The notes below the pieces were generated by a model. It was not told where the DNA came from. It made no database searches and saw only the letters and a list, made by a program, of their open reading frames with translations. Shown piece after piece: positions 1,507 through 61,896 of a stretch of DNA of 64,000 nucleotides. Each line of letters opens with the position of its first letter. Position 1 is the stretch's first letter. Source of the stretch: Klebsiella phage vB_KaeM_KaOmega; the sequence record MN013077.1; one strand, given 5' to 3'. The position numbers and the translations under genes were made by a program.

Positions 1507-3030
1507 GTGTCAAGAAAACGTAATCGTAATCGCTCAGTGAAGGTGGTTAAGGCCACCAGTGAGCAACTTAACGTATCCCGTATGCGTATGAGTGAGCAAG
1601 GGACCTTTGCTCTGGCTAAGGTTCAGGTTGACTCTGAACGCATGAAGGCCGAAGAGATCCGCTGGCCCAACCTGATCGGTACAGTGGAGTCAATGAAGCA
1701 GGACGCCACCGTTGCGACGGGCCTTGACATGCTGTACACTTTTGTGGAGAAAGCGTTCAAGGATTTCAAAGTAATCCCCGGGGAATCTGAGGAGTCTAAA
1801 AAGGCTGCGAAGTTCATCGAGTATTGCTTGAAGAACATGGAAGGTCAAACCCTTCGTCAGTTTGCCCGCGACGCTGCAACCTTCAACGAATATGGCCTGT
1901 CTGTCGTGGAGAAAGTCTACACTCAGGTAACCGTTGGTGAATACGTCGGTAAATACAAGGTCAAGAATCTTGCTTTCCGACCACAGGCTTCTCTGAGCCG
2001 AACTAACCCGATTGTGTACAATGCTGATGGCTCTGCTATCGTAGGCATCAAACAATCCCTGTCTGCATTCCAGAACTATACGGCGACAGAAATCGGTGTT
2101 GGTGGTCTCAACACCCGCATGGGTGATGTTATCATCCCAATCAACCGTGTCATGCTAATGAACACGGGCGGGTCTTCCTCCCAAGCGCTTGGCGTATCTC
2201 CGTTGGTGGGGTGCTACCGTGCATGGCGTGAAAAGATTCTGATTGAGAACCTGGAAGTTGTTGGTGCAACAAAGGATATGGGTGGTGTGATCGAATTGAA
2301 GATCCCATCCCAGATCCTAAACAAGGCTGCGATGGACCCGTCCTCTCCGGAAGCGGAGATGGTCCGTGGCCTGATGGAAGATGCAGCGAACGCCCACTCC
2401 GGTGAGCAGTCATTCTTCATGCTGCCGTCCGACACAAAGGACAACGCCCCTCAATACTCAATGACCCTGAAGGGCATCGACGGGATGGGCAAGCAGTACA
2501 GCACCGCACAGTTGATCAGTGACCGTAAGAAGTCAATCCTTGATCGTCTGGGTGCTGGCTTCATCAACGTGGGTAACGACAAAGGCGGTTCTTACAACCT
2601 TTCTGAGTCAAAGCAAACCATCCACACCCAGTTTGTTCAGCGTGTGAACGAGATCATTCTGGAAGCTCTGAACGAAAACCTGCTGCCACAGTTGCTGGCC
2701 CTGAATGACATCCGTCTCCCAGAGACCGAGATGCCATACGTTAAGGCCGGGGAAATCGTGGACGTGGACATGGAAGGATTCTCTAAGGCTATTCAGCGTA
2801 TTGGTGCCGTTGGCTACCTGCCGAAAACTCCGAAGGTTATCAACCGTGTTCTGGAAGTTCTGGGCATTGATGAGAAGATTGAGGAAGACATTTCTCAAGA
2901 GGAACTCATGAAGCTGTTGGGTGAAGATACCAGTCGCGCCGGGGACGGTATGACGAAAGGGTCTTCTGGTAACGGTACTGGCAAAATCTCTTCCACAAGA
3001 GATAATTCAGCGGCTAATTTGGATAATTAA
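1507..3030 (+). CDS. portal protein
   Basis: 507 aa in the position immediately after terminase, with a Gly/Ser-rich acidic C-terminus. Size and position fit a portal. Confidence 0.8.
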   Translation: MSRKRNRNRSVKVVKATSEQLNVSRMRMSEQGTFALAKVQVDSERMKAEEIRWPNLIGTVESMKQDATVATGLDMLYTFVEKAFKDFKVIPGESEESKKAAKFIEYCLKNMEGQTLRQFARDAATFNEYGLSVVEKVYTQVTVGEYVGKYKVKNLAFRPQASLSRTNPIVYNADGSAIVGIKQSLSAFQNYTATEIGVGGLNTRMGDVIIPINRVMLMNTGGSSSQALGVSPLVGCYRAWREKILIENLEVVGATKDMGGVIELKIPSQILNKAAMDPSSPEAEMVRGLMEDAANAHSGEQSFFMLPSDTKDNAPQYSMTLKGIDGMGKQYSTAQLISDRKKSILDRLGAGFINVGNDKGGSYNLSESKQTIHTQFVQRVNEIILEALNENLLPQLLALNDIRLPETEMPYVKAGEIVDVDMEGFSKAIQRIGAVGYLPKTPKVINRVLEVLGIDEKIEEDISQEELMKLLGEDTSRAGDGMTKGSSGNGTGKISSTRDNSAANLDN

Positions 3031-3096
3031 TCCGGTCGTGAAAACAACCTGTTGCAAAACAGTCAGTTCAGTGCTAAAATAATTATCACGGGAGCA

Positions 3097-3675
3097 ATGA
3101 TGGAAAACATTACCCTTTCCGACCTTCCTTCACAAACTAATCTGACTCGCATCCAAAAGAGTCGGTTTGTGAAAAAGGCCAACGACCTGCTGGCACAGGG
3201 CTTTAATAAAGCTGCTGCTATCAACGGGGCCGTTGGCTCCGTCCTTGTCCAGAAATCCGCTGATGCAGAAGAAATGATTTCTTACGAGATCATTTACGAA
3301 CCTGACACACCGGACCTTCACGGACAGTGGATGTCTAAAGAGACCTTGGTAAAGGCTCAACAAGATTTCAAAAAGGCTCAGGAACTCGGTGCTGTCACGG
3401 AGAACCTGTATCACCTTTTTGATACCGACTCTTGGAAAATCGTTGACCACTGGATTCAACCAGAGTTCGACGTAACTGTAGCCGAGACTGGCGAAATAAT
3501 CAAGGCCGGGTCTTGGGTAGCGAAAGTTCAGTACACCCCTGAGACATGGGCGTTGAAGAAGGCAGGAATTGTCGGCGGTCTCTCTGTGCAATGCGGCGGG
3601 ATGCTGAATGAGGAAACCAACGAACTTTCCAATCTTGATTTCAGTATTGCCATTGAAGAAGAGGATGCCAAATGA
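3097..3675 (+). CDS. head morphogenesis protein, possibly the prohead protease. Start moved to ATGATG because of a GGGAG RBS; the ORF is open from 3052.
   Basis: It lies between portal and scaffold as lambda C does relative to Nu3. Its stop overlaps the scaffold start (ATGA). Confidence 0.4.
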   Translation: MMENITLSDLPSQTNLTRIQKSRFVKKANDLLAQGFNKAAAINGAVGSVLVQKSADAEEMISYEIIYEPDTPDLHGQWMSKETLVKAQQDFKKAQELGAVTENLYHLFDTDSWKIVDHWIQPEFDVTVAETGEIIKAGSWVAKVQYTPETWALKKAGIVGGLSVQCGGMLNEETNELSNLDFSIAIEEEDAK

Positions 3676-4778
3676 TCAAGACGTGGATCGAGAAGGGTCG
3701 CCAGATTAAATCTCGCGGCATCGCTCTCACTCACCGAGATCAGGGCTACAGCGCGAATAACCGCCACGTCAGCCTCCTGACCAAATCTGAAGTTGACCCT
3801 GACAAGCTCACGGTTGAACTCATCAAATCCCTCGAACAGGTCACTCTGTCCATCTCTATGGAAGAGTATCTGCGTCGCTTCTTCCACCTGTGGAGTGGAG
3901 ATGCGGAGTTGCTCACCAAAGTGCTGGGCATGAAGACCGAGTTCGAACAGTCCGTCGAAGACAACCCGCCGGAAGATGATTCTTGGGAAGCAGACTGGAA
4001 TGAGCGCCACCAGAAATATCTGGAAGAGAAGCTCTCCTCTGTATCCATCATCAAGAAAGCGAAGGCTGGCGACGAACTGTCACTGCTTGAACAGTTTGAA
4101 CTCATCAAGGCCCGTAAGGACTTCGAAGATGGTTGCCTGAAAATGGACCTCGACTTCGGTGATGTGAAAACTGTAACCGAACCCGCTGCGGAAGTCAAGC
4201 CTGCTGTGGAAACACAAAAGTCCAAGACTACTGTAGCGCCAACTGAAAGCTCCGCTGGAGCGACTATCAAACCCGACGAGGAGATTCCCGTGGAGAAAGA
4301 AGTTGATGTAACCAAATCTGCTGCTTTTATCGAAATGCAGAAAGCGTTGGCAGAGCAGACTGAATTGATGAAAGCTATGCAGGCTCAGGTAGCCGATGCA
4401 CAGGAAATCATCAAAGCTCAGAAAGCCGCTAAACGCGCTGTAGCTGTCGAGAAAGCTGCTGGCTTTACTTTCGTAGCCGCCGATCAGCGTGAAGCTATTG
4501 CTGACGTGATCGAAAACCCTGCTCAGGCAACTCTGGTAGCTGTACTGGAGAAAGCCGCTGCGGATCTGAAAGCAAAAGACGAAGCTCTGGCTGCTAAAGA
4601 TCTGGAGATCGAAGAAGTCAAGAAATCCTTCGCTAATGGCAAAGAAGTCGGTGCTGATGGCACTCTGACTGAAGTAGCCAAGGGTTCCGAAGATGCGCAG
4701 GCTCGCCTGGACCGTATCATCGCCGAGAAAGTGGAACTGGCTAAAGCCAAACAAACCACTGAATTTGTTAACGCCTAA
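3672..4778 (+). CDS. scaffolding protein
   Basis: 368 aa, Glu/Ala/Lys-rich with predicted coiled coil and an acidic middle. It lies upstream of the decoration and capsid genes. Confidence 0.6.
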   Translation: MIKTWIEKGRQIKSRGIALTHRDQGYSANNRHVSLLTKSEVDPDKLTVELIKSLEQVTLSISMEEYLRRFFHLWSGDAELLTKVLGMKTEFEQSVEDNPPEDDSWEADWNERHQKYLEEKLSSVSIIKKAKAGDELSLLEQFELIKARKDFEDGCLKMDLDFGDVKTVTEPAAEVKPAVETQKSKTTVAPTESSAGATIKPDEEIPVEKEVDVTKSAAFIEMQKALAEQTELMKAMQAQVADAQEIIKAQKAAKRAVAVEKAAGFTFVAADQREAIADVIENPAQATLVAVLEKAAADLKAKDEALAAKDLEIEEVKKSFANGKEVGADGTLTEVAKGSEDAQARLDRIIAEKVELAKAKQTTEFVNA

Positions 4779-57874: not shown

Positions 57875-58184
57875 CGAGTGTCCCCATCAGTTGATCTCGG
57901 GAATATACCCGACCTTCCTTCTTATCTTGTTCAGATAAACCCACCAGTTCCTTCAGGGCCGCAGCCTCGCGCTTTGACACGTCAATAGCGAAACAACCCT
58001 CGCCCCGGCGAAGCTCGTCGGAATCGGAACGGTACATGGACCCGGTTTTACCGGAGAAGAAAACGGATTTCTCCGTCATCTTCGTAATCACCGCCATTTC
58101 GAATGGCTTGGCCCCGGCGTTACCCCGGGAAAAGGCGATGTGGTCACCCACACGCGCCTCGATTCCGAAACAATCTTTGATCAA
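57867..58184 (-). CDS. hypothetical protein
   Basis: 105 aa. Confidence 0.45.
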   Translation of the reverse strand: MIKDCFGIEARVGDHIAFSRGNAGAKPFEMAVITKMTEKSVFFSGKTGSMYRSDSDELRRGEGCFAIDVSKREAAALKELVGLSEQDKKEGRVYSRDQLMGTLDA

Positions 58185-59542
58185 ACTTCACCTCCAAAAA
58201 TCTCAGGGAACGTTTCATGATAGAACTTACGGACACCTTGGTCAACAATGATGTCCTTCACACGCAGGCGCTTCATCAGGCGAAGACCTTCGGTGCTCGT
58301 TGCTCGGGACAGCATAACATAGGCTTGACCCGGCGTGAAGGTGCCAAAGCCTAAATCAATGTTCACTTTGCCCAGCGTCAGGCCCTGTGCTTTGTGTCCG
58401 GTGATAGCATACCCCAGTTTGAATGGGAACTGCAAGTATTTCCCGATCTCTTTGTCAACCAGTACGGTTTGCTTCTCCATCACCTTGACAGTCTGCTTGG
58501 TGCCGTCTTCCAGTTCGATCTCTTTTTCAACCTGAACCATCTTTTCTTCCGGGACCTGTGTCACGTTGGTCCACTCGTACTTGCCGATATGGATCGGCTT
58601 GCCGTCAATGTCCACGATGACGAAGGTCTTGGCGATTTTCTTAATGATCCCCACCGTACCGTTAACGTAATCTGGCTCCTTTTTCTTCTGGTCATTGTCG
58701 TTAACAACAATCATGACCTTCAGACCTTCTTTCAGGTTCAGAACTTCGTTGACCGGGCGCTCCGGGAACTCACCTGAGATCTTGGCTTCGAAAACATGAG
58801 GCTCTGCCTTGATCTTCTCGAACTCACGCTGGTTGATTTGCTCTGCCAGTTTGTTGGTGGTTGTCAGAGTGACAGCGCCTGGCAACGCCGGGCCGAAGCA
58901 CTTCTCGTTGAAGTAATCAACTGCCGCACCAACATTATTACCCACACGAATGTTGTTCAGGTGTTCAGCAAACACCGGATCGGTCTGTCGGTGGACCTTC
59001 GGCAGATACGCATTGGTGAAATTCAGTTCGTTCCAGATGTCGCAGCCGAACGGGATTTCATTCCCGTGCAGTTCACGGAACATTGCCGTCTCTTCACGCT
59101 TCAGTACAGGCTTGATCTGGAAGCCGTCGCCAAACATGATGACTTGAAGACCACCAAAAGGCTTATTTACCTTACGATGATAGCGCAGTTTCATGTCGAT
59201 CTCACGCAGCTTGTCACTGCGGGTCATAGAGATCTCGTCAAAGACGATAGCATCTAACGCATCTGACGCCATCAGCATCGCAGGCTTCTTAGACTTCGCT
59301 TTGTAGTCTTCCTTGGTTGTAACACCAAAGGTAAGGCCAAATGCCTTGTGGGTGGTAATGCCGTTAATATTCAGCGCCGCAATCCCGGTTGGTGCAACAA
59401 ACAGGAAGCTGTCGGCAAAGAACTCACGCAGAGTGGCGATCATCAAACTCTTGCCCGAACCGCCCGGGCCTGTGATGAACACGTTTTCACCCGCCATGAT
59501 GGCTCGCATTGCTTCTTCGTTACCAATTACTGTCTTACCCAT
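58181..59542 (-). CDS. SF1B DNA helicase (Dda/RecD/Pif1-like)
   Basis: Walker A ITGPGGSGKSL, Walker B IVFDEISM, and a C-terminal SH3-like region. Confidence 0.8.
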   Translation of the reverse strand: MGKTVIGNEEAMRAIMAGENVFITGPGGSGKSLMIATLREFFADSFLFVAPTGIAALNINGITTHKAFGLTFGVTTKEDYKAKSKKPAMLMASDALDAIVFDEISMTRSDKLREIDMKLRYHRKVNKPFGGLQVIMFGDGFQIKPVLKREETAMFRELHGNEIPFGCDIWNELNFTNAYLPKVHRQTDPVFAEHLNNIRVGNNVGAAVDYFNEKCFGPALPGAVTLTTTNKLAEQINQREFEKIKAEPHVFEAKISGEFPERPVNEVLNLKEGLKVMIVVNDNDQKKKEPDYVNGTVGIIKKIAKTFVIVDIDGKPIHIGKYEWTNVTQVPEEKMVQVEKEIELEDGTKQTVKVMEKQTVLVDKEIGKYLQFPFKLGYAITGHKAQGLTLGKVNIDLGFGTFTPGQAYVMLSRATSTEGLRLMKRLRVKDIIVDQGVRKFYHETFPEIFGGEV

Positions 59543-59735: not shown

Positions 59736-59924
59736 TTAATCATGAGTGATGAATGCCAAAATAACCAAAGACAGGAACATCATAGCCGCACCCCAAGCCA
59801 TTAGCCAAGGCACTTGGCTCCCAAACTGCGCCACCACTTCAGGAAAGAAATAATTAGCTCCCCAGCGGGCAGGGAACATCCAAACAGCCAAGAGCGTAAT
59901 GAACCAAATAAACAGATTTCTCAT
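59736..59924 (-). CDS. two-TM holin candidate
   Basis: 62 aa, two hydrophobic helices, ATGA coupling to the hydrolase gene upstream. Confidence 0.45.
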   Translation of the reverse strand: MRNLFIWFITLLAVWMFPARWGANYFFPEVVAQFGSQVPWLMAWGAAMMFLSLVILAFITHD

Positions 59925-60454
59925 GTCGCCTTTTCCTCTTTTGGTTTATAAAACACATGATAGCCGATAGTGGCTGTCTTCGTAAAGAACTTTCTCCAAT
60001 AAGGCTTTACCTTCTTCGTATGGAAGTGGGTTGCGCCATGTGTTGGGTCGAGCTTGTTATACAATACATCATTGTTCCGGATCTTGTAAAGGAATTTCGC
60101 AATATCCTGTGCAACCATCCAAGACTCTTTATCACGGACGGCGTACCCGCTACGGATCATCGTCCAAGAGAATTGAGAGGATTGATACACGACCTTCCTC
60201 ACTGACTCCGGGTAACCGTCATGTTTCAACCTGTTCAGAGTAACAAATCCAACCGCCATCTGTCCACTGATATTTTCCCCACGTGACTCGAAATAAATGT
60301 TGCAGGCCAAAGCATTGACCGACGAGTCATTCTTTTTGCACACATGAACAACCGGGGCGAGCTTTTTCTTCGGTGTATTCTCTTTAGCTAAGGCGGATGC
60401 CGGGGCTAAAGAAAGTACGCTGGCTGCAATGAGGGCAGCGGTGCTCTTTCTCAT
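59921..60454 (-). CDS. secreted cell-wall hydrolase, SleB/CwlJ (Hydrolase_2) type; endolysin candidate
   Basis: A signal peptide (MRKSTAALIAASVLSLAPASALA) followed by NIYFESRGE...AVGFVTLNR, the SleB-family signature. The ORF is open to 60547. Confidence 0.6.
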   Translation of the reverse strand: MRKSTAALIAASVLSLAPASALAKENTPKKKLAPVVHVCKKNDSSVNALACNIYFESRGENISGQMAVGFVTLNRLKHDGYPESVRKVVYQSSQFSWTMIRSGYAVRDKESWMVAQDIAKFLYKIRNNDVLYNKLDPTHGATHFHTKKVKPYWRKFFTKTATIGYHVFYKPKEEKAT

Positions 60455-60469
60455 ACAAACTCCTAAATA

Positions 60470-60497
60470 AGAAAGGCCCAGTTTATCACTGAGCCTT
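60470..60497 (-). promoter_or_regulatory. sigma70 promoter candidate for the lysis pair
   Basis: On the - strand: TTGACT, 16-nt spacer, TAAACT. Confidence 0.4.
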
Positions 60498-60503
60498 TGG
60501 AAG

Positions 60504-60905
60504 TCAAGCCTTTTTGGAGGCTTGAGCGAGGACGCCCTTCTTAACATCTTCCCAAAGGGAATTGAGGAAAGGGTCGTTCTTGATCACATCCGGATACCAA
60601 GGCCCGTAGATACGGTATACGGAATCCACAGTGATCGCATACAACTGCCCGCCATTAACTGCGAGGCCAGTTACGTAGCCCGTTCGGACTTGGGTGCCAT
60701 CTTTGCCAGTCTTCCGGCGCTTCGCCTCATTGAACTCGATATAGCCCGTCAATGTAACGATCTTCTCGGGGACTTGCAGGTCGGGCAGCTTTTCATGATT
60801 GATTAGCTGATTACCGGACTTGCTGCCCTCCAGGCAAAGATTACCCCCGTACTTCTTGCCGTACTTCCTGGCAAACTCAGCCATTTTAGTCGTGGACAAT
60901 TTCAC
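60504..60905 (-). CDS. hypothetical protein
   Basis: 133 aa. Confidence 0.5.
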   Translation of the reverse strand: MKLSTTKMAEFARKYGKKYGGNLCLEGSKSGNQLINHEKLPDLQVPEKIVTLTGYIEFNEAKRRKTGKDGTQVRTGYVTGLAVNGGQLYAITVDSVYRIYGPWYPDVIKNDPFLNSLWEDVKKGVLAQASKKA

Positions 60906-61407
60906 TCTCCTTCAGAACATAGATGGTCACATCGAAGTCTCGCAGGCGACCCTCGATCATCCGGGAGATGATACCCCAATCACCCCCGGCAAGTCCAGCC
61001 CCGATTTTAGGCAGACCGATCTTCAGATCGTGGGTTGGCATGTCAAGAATACGACACTTGGCATGAAGAGACACCGCCATCGCTGACAGCGCCGAACGCA
61101 GTGCCCAGTAATCGAGGTCCATCTTACCCTCTTTGCGACCCGTGAAGGTGTACTGGCTGTACAGGTTGTACACCAGCAGACCATTCTCGGAGAACGCGCA
61201 GGATAATGTCCCCAACTTTGCCTTATCTCCCCGTACTGTCATCTGGTCCGCCGTCCATGCCTCTGGGAACGCCTCGGCTATCTTCGGGGCAATACCAGAC
61301 TTCATTGTATTCATGCAGTTGCAGCCGTGGGCGATGACATTCACCTCCCCGGCCTTTGCAGCCGTGATCAGGTTGCCTACCTTGTACCGTATTTTACCAC
61401 ATGGCAT
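60886..61407 (-). CDS. macrodomain protein, TARG1/DarG-like
   Basis: NVIAHGCNCMNTMKSGIAPKIAEAFP matches my recollection of the TARG1/OARD1 motif [24 protein letters not shown]. The start is trimmed to MPCGK; the ORF is open to 61452. Confidence 0.55.
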   Translation of the reverse strand: MPCGKIRYKVGNLITAAKAGEVNVIAHGCNCMNTMKSGIAPKIAEAFPEAWTADQMTVRGDKAKLGTLSCAFSENGLLVYNLYSQYTFTGRKEGKMDLDYWALRSALSAMAVSLHAKCRILDMPTHDLKIGLPKIGAGLAGGDWGIISRMIEGRLRDFDVTIYVLKESEIVHD

Positions 61408-61408
61408 C

Positions 61409-61621
61409 TTAAAGTTCACCTCGCTTCGCTCTCTGGCAGATCTGGAGAACATCGTAGCACGACTGCTTCACAATCCAAGGCTCCCCACGATACAGGGTGA
61501 TGAGGGTCCCTTTACGATCTGTCCCCTCGATCTGTGTCACTTGTGGGTGAAACTCCCGGATATTTGCAACATCGAGGCAGATCGATTCCTCAGAAGCCAG
61601 TTGATTGAGATATACAAACAT
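61409..61621 (-). CDS. small protein
   Basis: 70 aa. Confidence 0.4.
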   Translation of the reverse strand: MFVYLNQLASEESICLDVANIREFHPQVTQIEGTDRKGTLITLYRGEPWIVKQSCYDVLQICQRAKRGEL

Positions 61622-61629
61622 GAACCCTC

Positions 61630-61896
61630 CTACAGGTATTGGCTTTCAAGCCACTGCGCCGCCTCGTCAGGTGACTTACAGTCTCGCTTTTCGTTGATGG
61701 TAAACCAGCCGTCGATGCAATTACACGCCCAGTCTTCCTCGTCCTCTTCCTCCGCACGTTCTTGAACCTCAACATGCCAAGTGCCGTCCCAGTTCTGGTC
61801 GATAATTACCTGAACCTCATTGTGGAGTTCTTTTTCCACACGGTCAGCAACCTCATTGAACTGGTCCATAATATCAATTTCATTTTCCACTTTCAA
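61630..61896 (-). CDS. highly acidic small protein
   Basis: 88 aa, D/E-rich. A DNA-mimic or host-factor-binding role is possible. Confidence 0.45.
   Translation of the reverse strand: MKVENEIDIMDQFNEVADRVEKELHNEVQVIIDQNWDGTWHVEVQERAEEEDEEDWACNCIDGWFTINEKRDCKSPDEAAQWLESQYL

Follow-up and report, generated by a model that had tools for sequence, protein, structure and literature searches.

Within the 64,000 nucleotides of Klebsiella phage vB_KaeM_KaOmega (sequence record MN013077.1) that were analyzed, and to which we refer as the window, a minus-strand gene (60886..61407, probable product of 173 amino acids (aa)) encodes an AdfM-like macrodomain protein of the ALC1/TARG1-like class, with an active site of the SCO6735/Bt_1257 type and with homology to both SCO6735 and the AdfM protein (anti-DarT factor, macrodomain) of phage T4. 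On basis of these two homologies we infer a substrate and a phenotype: with a probability of around 0.7, the protein is a free-standing ADP-ribosyl glycohydrolase of the AdfM kind that erases ADP-ribose from thymidine (T-ADPr) on the single-stranded DNA (ssDNA) of the phage, using SCO6735-type chemistry, and that in this way counters host DarTG2. An early expression of the gene is presumed likewise.

A search of the sequence databases yielded 932 homologues of the protein (best E-value 6.5e-107), and in a tblastn search the family was recovered from 2,934 of 50,697 phage genomes (about 5.8%), including that of T4; the gene can be regarded as far more than a chance open reading frame (ORF). The maximal ORF, which starts with an ATG at 61452 and runs over 60886..61452 on the minus strand (188 aa), is the one that had been put forward in an earlier prediction made from the sequence alone (hereafter the original prediction), and the core motif quoted at that time (IAHGCNCMNTMKSGIAPKIAEAFP) is indeed part of it. 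The AlphaFold2 model of the protein is confident (mean predicted local distance difference test score (pLDDT) of 94, predicted template modelling score (pTM) of 0.90) and displays the three-layer alpha/beta/alpha macro fold with an ADP-ribose cleft, which bears out the macrodomain identity. The structures in the PDB that were recovered with phmmer were those of Bt_1257 (6e-8), SCO6735 (2e-6) and Poa1p (2.5e-6), followed by weaker matches to Mtb DarG (5e-4), Taq DarG (4e-3) and TARG1 (0.75). A family profile, built from 97 homologues, likewise recovered Bt_1257 (2.3e-19), SCO6735 (1.2e-15) and TARG1 (4e-13), and lower down Poa1p (9e-10), DarG (2e-7) and ALC1 (0.7); matches of the MacroD-type, the PARG-type or the viral Mac1-type were absent from this profile search of the PDB. 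The protein furthermore matched PHROG 335 (5.6e-62), and DarG was its sole match both in NCBIfam (2.7e-6; model positions 1-146 of 338, 26.9 bits versus a cutoff of 250) and in PADLOC (1.2e-7; model positions 2-143 of 329). Bt_1257 and SCO6735 are the best matches by sequence, by profile and by fold. The window protein is an ALC1/TARG1-like macrodomain that is closest to the stand-alone SCO6735/Bt_1257 subclass. Among its best matches by profile and by fold, none lies outside the ALC1/TARG1-like class, which holds TARG1 as well as DarG, and the original prediction, which had supposed this class, was hence not refuted.

The members of this class differ in their active site. The catalysis by TARG1 involves Lys84 and Asp125 and that by DarG Lys80, whereas SCO6735 has a glutamine (Gln85) at this position that is held by Asn27 (PMC9411070). 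The replacements Q85A and N27S abolish the activity of SCO6735, and its 'mobile loop' is five residues longer and carries extra lysines (PMC9411070). The enzyme was reported to be a very efficient T-ADPr hydrolase on DarT-modified ssDNA, faster than DarG, and to rescue cells from DarT (PMC9411070). It is inactive on guanine-ADPr and cleaves Glu/Asp-linked ADP-ribose (ADPr) on proteins only weakly. In the window protein, N30 and Q85 align with N27 and Q85 of SCO6735. Within an alignment of 13 sequences, the catalytic column is occupied by Gln in the window protein, T4 Tk.4, five other phage homologues, Bt_1257 and SCO6735, and by Lys in TARG1, Mtb DarG, Taq DarG and PhiKZ gp104. Across the 97 homologues N30, N81 and Q85 are invariant, R91 is conserved in at least 90%, and the G-x-G-L-A-G-G phosphate loop is invariant or nearly so. 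Between Q85 and Y100 lies a loop as long as that of Bt_1257; it contains R91, K92 and K95 and exceeds the corresponding loop of TARG1, DarG and T4 Tk.4 by 5-6 residues. Poa1p, despite a high similarity to the window protein in fold and sequence, has Cys and Ser at the columns of N81 and Q85. Given the match of Asn30, Gln85 and the long basic loop, and the Cys/Ser pair of Poa1p, the predicted catalytic architecture is SCO6735-like and not DarG-like, TARG1-like or Poa1p-like.

The kinship with the cellular enzymes extends beyond the catalytic residues. SCO6735 of Streptomyces coelicolor and Bt_1257 of Bacteroides (PDB 5E3B, 2FG1/2AFC) are, like the window protein, stand-alone proteins of roughly 150-180 aa with a G-x-G-L-A-G-G loop and a basic isoelectric point (pI), and the loop that follows the glutamine is of the same length and contains basic residues in all of them. 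There are differences as well: Lys34 of SCO6735 aligns with Ser37 of the window protein (adjacent to Lys36) and lacks conservation among the phage members, and the motif around the asparagine reads HGCNC in the phages versus H(V/I)CND in SCO6735 and Bt_1257. On every feature that sequence and fold allow to be compared, the window protein would nevertheless belong to the SCO6735/Bt_1257 subclass. The original prediction had typed the protein as TARG1/DarG-like, and the TARG1 string cited to that end agrees with the solved TARG1 sequence in our alignment. The assignment was right at the level of the broad class but too specific beyond it, as the catalytic lysine is replaced by glutamine, the C-terminal domain of DarG is missing and the nearest characterized relative is SCO6735. 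DarG combines the catalytic Lys80 (Taq numbering, FPTK motif) with a C-terminal DarT-binding domain and an adjoining darT gene, and the window protein possesses none of the three; the dyad Lys84/Asp125 of human TARG1/OARD1 is absent too. An identity as DarG proper was rejected on these grounds (no catalytic Lys, no C-terminal domain within 173 aa, no darT).

The connection to anti-phage defence is provided by phage T4. Gene tk.4 of T4 was the single hit of a transposon screen on DarTG2 and was named adfM, and a clean tk.4 knockout was sensitized to DarTG2 (HIDEN-SEQ preprint, bioRxiv 10.1101/2025.11.20.689424). The T4 protein in our alignment is taken to be Tk.4 on basis of the position of its gene between vs and tk: at 100% identity, it matches the 'macro domain-containing protein' encoded between these two genes in the collinear phage ECML-123-2. 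The name Tk.4 is tied to the macro family independently by an annotation note for GAP32, and also by a fold match in BFVD, from Acinetobacter phage 133, which carries the name tk.4. Compared with T4 Tk.4, our family profile gave an hhalign probability of 99.9% (E-value 4.3e-31), and PHROG 335 is common to the window protein, T4 Tk.4 and PhiKZ gp104. Both the T4 protein and the window protein are free-standing phage macrodomains with the motifs HGCNC..TM.SG, NLY.Q and P(K/R)IGAG and with Gln in the catalytic column, and both have Bt_1257 as their best match in the PDB, with other ALC1-like members behind. They differ in the loop after the glutamine, which in T4 Tk.4 is 5-6 residues shorter and lacks the R/K-rich 'mobile loop' (a short loop is also found in the homologues of slur16 and REP8), in their pI (5.9, acidic to neutral, for T4 Tk.4 versus 8.6, basic, for the window protein) and in their gene neighbourhoods. 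The homology to a validated free-standing AdfM argues for counting the window protein among the AdfM kind. The anti-DarTG role that had been suggested in the original prediction is therewith backed by the homology to T4 Tk.4, although for the window phage it is a projection from relatives and the idea as such had already been published.

A second AdfM has been described in the chimallivirus PhiKZ. Its gp104, a DarG2-like macrodomain, is needed on DarTG2 hosts and strips the ADP-ribose added by DarT2 from DNA in vitro (Morgan et al., Cell Rep 2026, PMC13309987). Like the window protein it is a free-standing phage macrodomain of PHROG 335 for which the same role is proposed. Unlike the window protein it is of the DarG2-type, with a catalytic Lys in an FPTK motif and a match to Mtb DarG of 9e-25, and a search of the PDB with gp104 gave no match to Bt_1257, SCO6735 or TARG1. 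PhiKZ gp104 is, moreover, imported into the phage nucleus. To our knowledge, Certrevirus, the genus to which the window phage can be assigned (see below), is not known to form such a structure. The AdfM proteins of PhiKZ and T4 thus differ in the type of their active site, and by its residues the window protein sides with the Gln type of T4.

To survey the remainder of the genome for related functions, Pfam domains were sought in 66 additional ORFs, each 130 aa or longer, without prior annotation and located outside the structural arm; they came from the window's replication arm and, beyond it, from OL744211, a near-identical genome. Among the domains found were NADAR, RlaP, DNA ligase and ThyX, while none of the 66 contained an ADP-ribosyltransferase (ART), DarT (DUF4433), KptA, RNA ligase or Nudix domain. 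The NADAR protein (253 aa; OL744211.1, 130867-131628, minus strand) matched PF08719 with an E-value of 4.8e-33 (115 bits). For T4 (30.3/AdfN) and for Bas60-62, which are Vequintavirinae, NADAR proteins have been described that remove guanine-ADPr and overcome DarTG1 (PMC11825919). T4 and the near-identical OL744211 have a NADAR gene in common, from which it may be deduced that the window phage probably carries a set of two erasers, NADAR plus macrodomain, like the adfN and adfM of T4.

Taken together, the following course of events can be envisaged. The enzyme would be produced from the leftward block of replication genes and would bind the ADP-ribose that the host toxin DarT2 writes on N3 of thymidine, at TNTC motifs, in single-stranded phage DNA. 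Hydrolysis of the N-glycosidic bond would restore normal DNA, so that replication and packaging could proceed in DarTG2 hosts. The predicted chemistry is of the SCO6735-type, water-mediated and dependent on Gln instead of a catalytic lysine: Asn30 would hold Gln85, Gln85 would position the distal ribose, and the ssDNA would be clamped by the long loop of residues 86-99 with its basic R91, K92 and K95.

A number of observations weigh against this course of events. As a single sequence, the protein scores 17.4 bits (E-value 0.0044) with the Pfam Macro model (PF01661) and does not reach the gathering threshold of 22 bits. Several homologues at 50-57% identity do have a precomputed PF01661 match, and the shortfall reflects divergence and not an absent fold. 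The identity to T4 Tk.4 is about 30%, and that to the cellular, non-viral SCO6735 and Bt_1257 is 24-26% (about 26% for SCO6735). The similarity to PhiKZ gp104 is still poorer, with 15% identity to the window family and an hhalign probability of 52% (E-value 1.4e-4), and a BLASTP comparison with the window protein returned a match of 20 residues only (E-value 0.027). Close kinship with the AdfM of PhiKZ is not claimed given these figures, and the link to AdfM consequently runs through T4 Tk.4 and PHROG 335. The evidence on T4 tk.4 itself comes from a preprint that does not include enzymology of Tk.4 (bioRxiv 10.1101/2025.11.20.689424). A check of host plasmids for DarG-like genes yielded just a weak match, on a plasmid of Enterobacter ludwigii, and is uninformative on the prevalence of the system in the natural hosts. 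Finally, substrate specificity varies within the class, and both SCO6735 and TARG1 also hydrolyze uracil-linked ADPr (U-ADPr) on single-stranded RNA (PMC13036486) and ADPr on Glu/Asp of proteins.

This last point leads to the alternative that survives best, though we consider it unlikely, namely that the protein is a broader or a different eraser, with U-ADPr RNA or Glu/Asp-linked protein ADPr and not T-ADPr DNA as its main substrate, that counters other ART-based host toxins or defences or tunes an ART of the phage itself. The side activities of the two closest characterized enzymes are compatible with such a function, as is the presence of the family in about one in seventeen phage genomes, which is broader than a single defence system might predict, and Iyer et al. 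call the assignment of substrates to the phage Macro domains uncertain. Yet tk.4 is the only T4 gene that is specifically required on DarTG2, SCO6735 strongly prefers DNA to protein in competition, and a bacterial defence that places U-ADPr on RNA is not known. The absence of a phage ART among the 66 scanned ORFs speaks against a self-regulatory role.

The label 'putative phosphatase' that the gene bears in some databases stems from the similarity to Poa1p, and by that token the protein could be an ADP-ribose-1''-phosphate (Appr1p) phosphatase that clears a by-product of RNA repair, or some other small metabolite or signal derived from ADPr. We consider this improbable: precisely the family-invariant N81 and Q85 are Cys and Ser in Poa1p, whereas Bt_1257 and SCO6735 share both residues, and the phenotype of the T4 homologue is specific for DarTG2. 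In addition, Appr>p or Appr1p would have to come from a KptA/Tpt1 or an RNA ligase, and neither was found among the 66 scanned ORFs, which weakens this alternative. That the protein is merely a non-catalytic binder of ADP-ribose (a reader or sponge), as some members of the class like ALC1 are, would fit the absence of the Lys (and Asp) that are catalytic in TARG1 and DarG, but is highly improbable considering that SCO6735 is very active with the same Gln and that Asn30, Gln85 and the G-x-G-L-A-G-G loop show the (near-)invariance that is typical of a conserved catalytic site. A T-ADPr eraser of the AdfM kind thus remains our preferred explanation.

With respect to its genomic setting, the 2.8 kb around the macrodomain gene are 99.4% identical to the corresponding region of Enterobacter phage vB_ExiM_F1M1E and its siblings, and 83-88% identical to that of the Cronobacter phages CR3, CR8 and CR9 and the Pectobacterium phages phiTE and CB7. 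By these sequences, the window phage can be assigned to the genus Certrevirus (Vequintavirinae). In the records of the relatives the gene is named 'putative phosphatase' or 'hypothetical protein'. As to the start of the gene, the homologues and the family consensus begin at a second ATG, at 61407 (MPCGK...), which makes 61407 the likely start and 173 aa the likely length of the product. This ATG is preceded by a Shine-Dalgarno-like GAGGTGA, and the 15-residue N-terminal extension that distinguishes the 188-aa ORF is not conserved among homologues.

The two small minus-strand ORFs that the original prediction had placed on either side of the macrodomain gene were recovered. The upstream one (61409..61621, 70 aa) belongs to PHROG 12235 of unknown function (2.2e-45) and has no family match in Pfam, NCBIfam or PADLOC. 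Its TAA (61411-61409) is separated by 1 nucleotide from the macrodomain ATG at 61407, and because of this spacing from stop to start the two genes are probably co-transcribed and translationally coupled. The downstream one is listed as an ORF of 60504-60905 that begins with a GTG at 60905. As its match to PHROG 12555, again of unknown function (5.6e-85), opens at residue 8, the ATG at 60884, 1 nucleotide past the macrodomain stop, is its most likely start, which leaves a gene of 126 aa (60504..60884, minus strand). It showed no defence-related family in NCBIfam or PADLOC. That there is no cognate DarT nearby, as had been noted before, holds: neither DarT nor any PADLOC match was found in the neighbouring genes. 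Directly after the downstream gene, a pattern scan marked a terminator-like hairpin (60472..60498, minus strand) with an 11-bp stem and a T-rich tail, which is the probable end of the transcription unit, although it is a match to a consensus only and the 6 such sites in the region are not clearly above the 3.8 +/- 1.7 in shuffled sequence. Together, the three genes resemble the end of a single leftward transcription unit. A scan for sigma-70 promoters gave nothing convincing for this unit, the best site (61896-61868) lying over coding sequence. An ORF on the opposite strand (61133-61765, plus strand, 210 aa) was treated as spurious since it overlaps the strongly conserved macrodomain gene; it also overlaps the 70-aa gene and had displaced the macrodomain gene in a naive longest-ORF gene call.

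The minus-strand block that includes the macrodomain gene also holds the genes for DNA polymerase, a primase/helicase and a Dda/PIF1-like helicase (58181-59542, minus strand), and the location in an 'early arm', as worded in the original prediction, is plausible. Within the same arm, directly downstream of the macrodomain unit, lies a lysis-type cassette. It consists of a gene for a SleB-type cell-wall hydrolase (59921-60547, minus strand; Pfam Hydrolase_2, 1.9e-22), the product of which has a hydrophobic, signal-like segment at its N-terminus, and a membrane-like ORF of 62 aa (59736-59924), which is followed by a terminator-like hairpin (59877-59857).

A conserved operon partner of the macrodomain gene was looked for and rejected, as the pairing with the 70-aa and 126-aa genes is confined to Certrevirus. 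The homologues in Mydovirus, Stephanstirmvirinae, Pakpunavirus, Otagovirus and T4 have other genes beside them, and because of these changing surroundings the macrodomain can be viewed as an independent module, as expected of a stand-alone enzyme. In Proteus phage Mydo (Mydovirus; 2495-4556) the homologue is found two small genes upstream of an RNA ligase 2, with the same SleB-type endolysin further downstream; Certrevirus has no ligase at this position. The macrodomain homologue adjoins the gene for nicotinamide phosphoribosyltransferase (NAMPT) in the Pseudomonas phages PA10 and VCM and a gene for a ribose-phosphate pyrophosphokinase (Prs) in Vibrio phage Morian, and the near-identical genome encodes NAMPT together with a Prs-family protein, functions of NAD+ salvage, at OL744211.1 140198-142930. 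This hints at a recurrent neighbourhood of NAD/ADPr counter-defence.

Some homologues extend beyond the macrodomain at the C-terminus, by around 100 residues in Felixounavirus (Escherichia phage REP8, 277-1062) and around 40 in Kuttervirus (Salmonella phage SFP10, 277-882); the window protein has nothing that corresponds to these extensions. Outside the window, two tandem paralogues of around 385 aa with RCC1-like repeats (Pfam WD40_RLD, best E-value 1.1e-14) are encoded on the minus strand (L002:35108-37437), and a Laminin_G_3 protein and a DUF2201 metallopeptidase/VWA protein are present as well; these have no obvious link to the macrodomain.

The concept of AdfM and two validated examples (T4 and PhiKZ) have already been published. 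What remains new is the proposed split of the AdfM proteins over two mechanisms and the retention of the DNA-clamp loop. Tentatively, and as a proposal to which we attach a rather low likelihood, phage AdfM would come in a Lys-type, DarG2-like form (PhiKZ) and a much more widespread Gln-type, SCO6735-like form, the latter occurring in T4, Vequintavirinae, Felixounavirus, Ackermannviridae and Pakpunavirus. Certrevirus would have kept the DNA-clamp loop that was lost by T4, and its enzyme could be faster, more processive and wider in range. If true, this range would include T-ADPr DNA and U-ADPr RNA and possibly protein ADPr, and the long-loop enzyme would guard the phage against DarT2 variants or other ART-based defences beyond those covered by T4 AdfM. 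The analysis connects the phage proteins with the Gln-type chemistry of SCO6735, with N30, Q85 and the loop 86-99 as the concrete residues, and assigns a probable function to a gene listed as 'putative phosphatase' or 'hypothetical protein' in phage records. It extends the idea of AdfM as an anti-DarTG2 factor from T4 and PhiKZ to the Certrevirus phages of Enterobacter, Cronobacter and Pectobacterium, which are of interest for biocontrol, an application in which host defence systems limit the host range.

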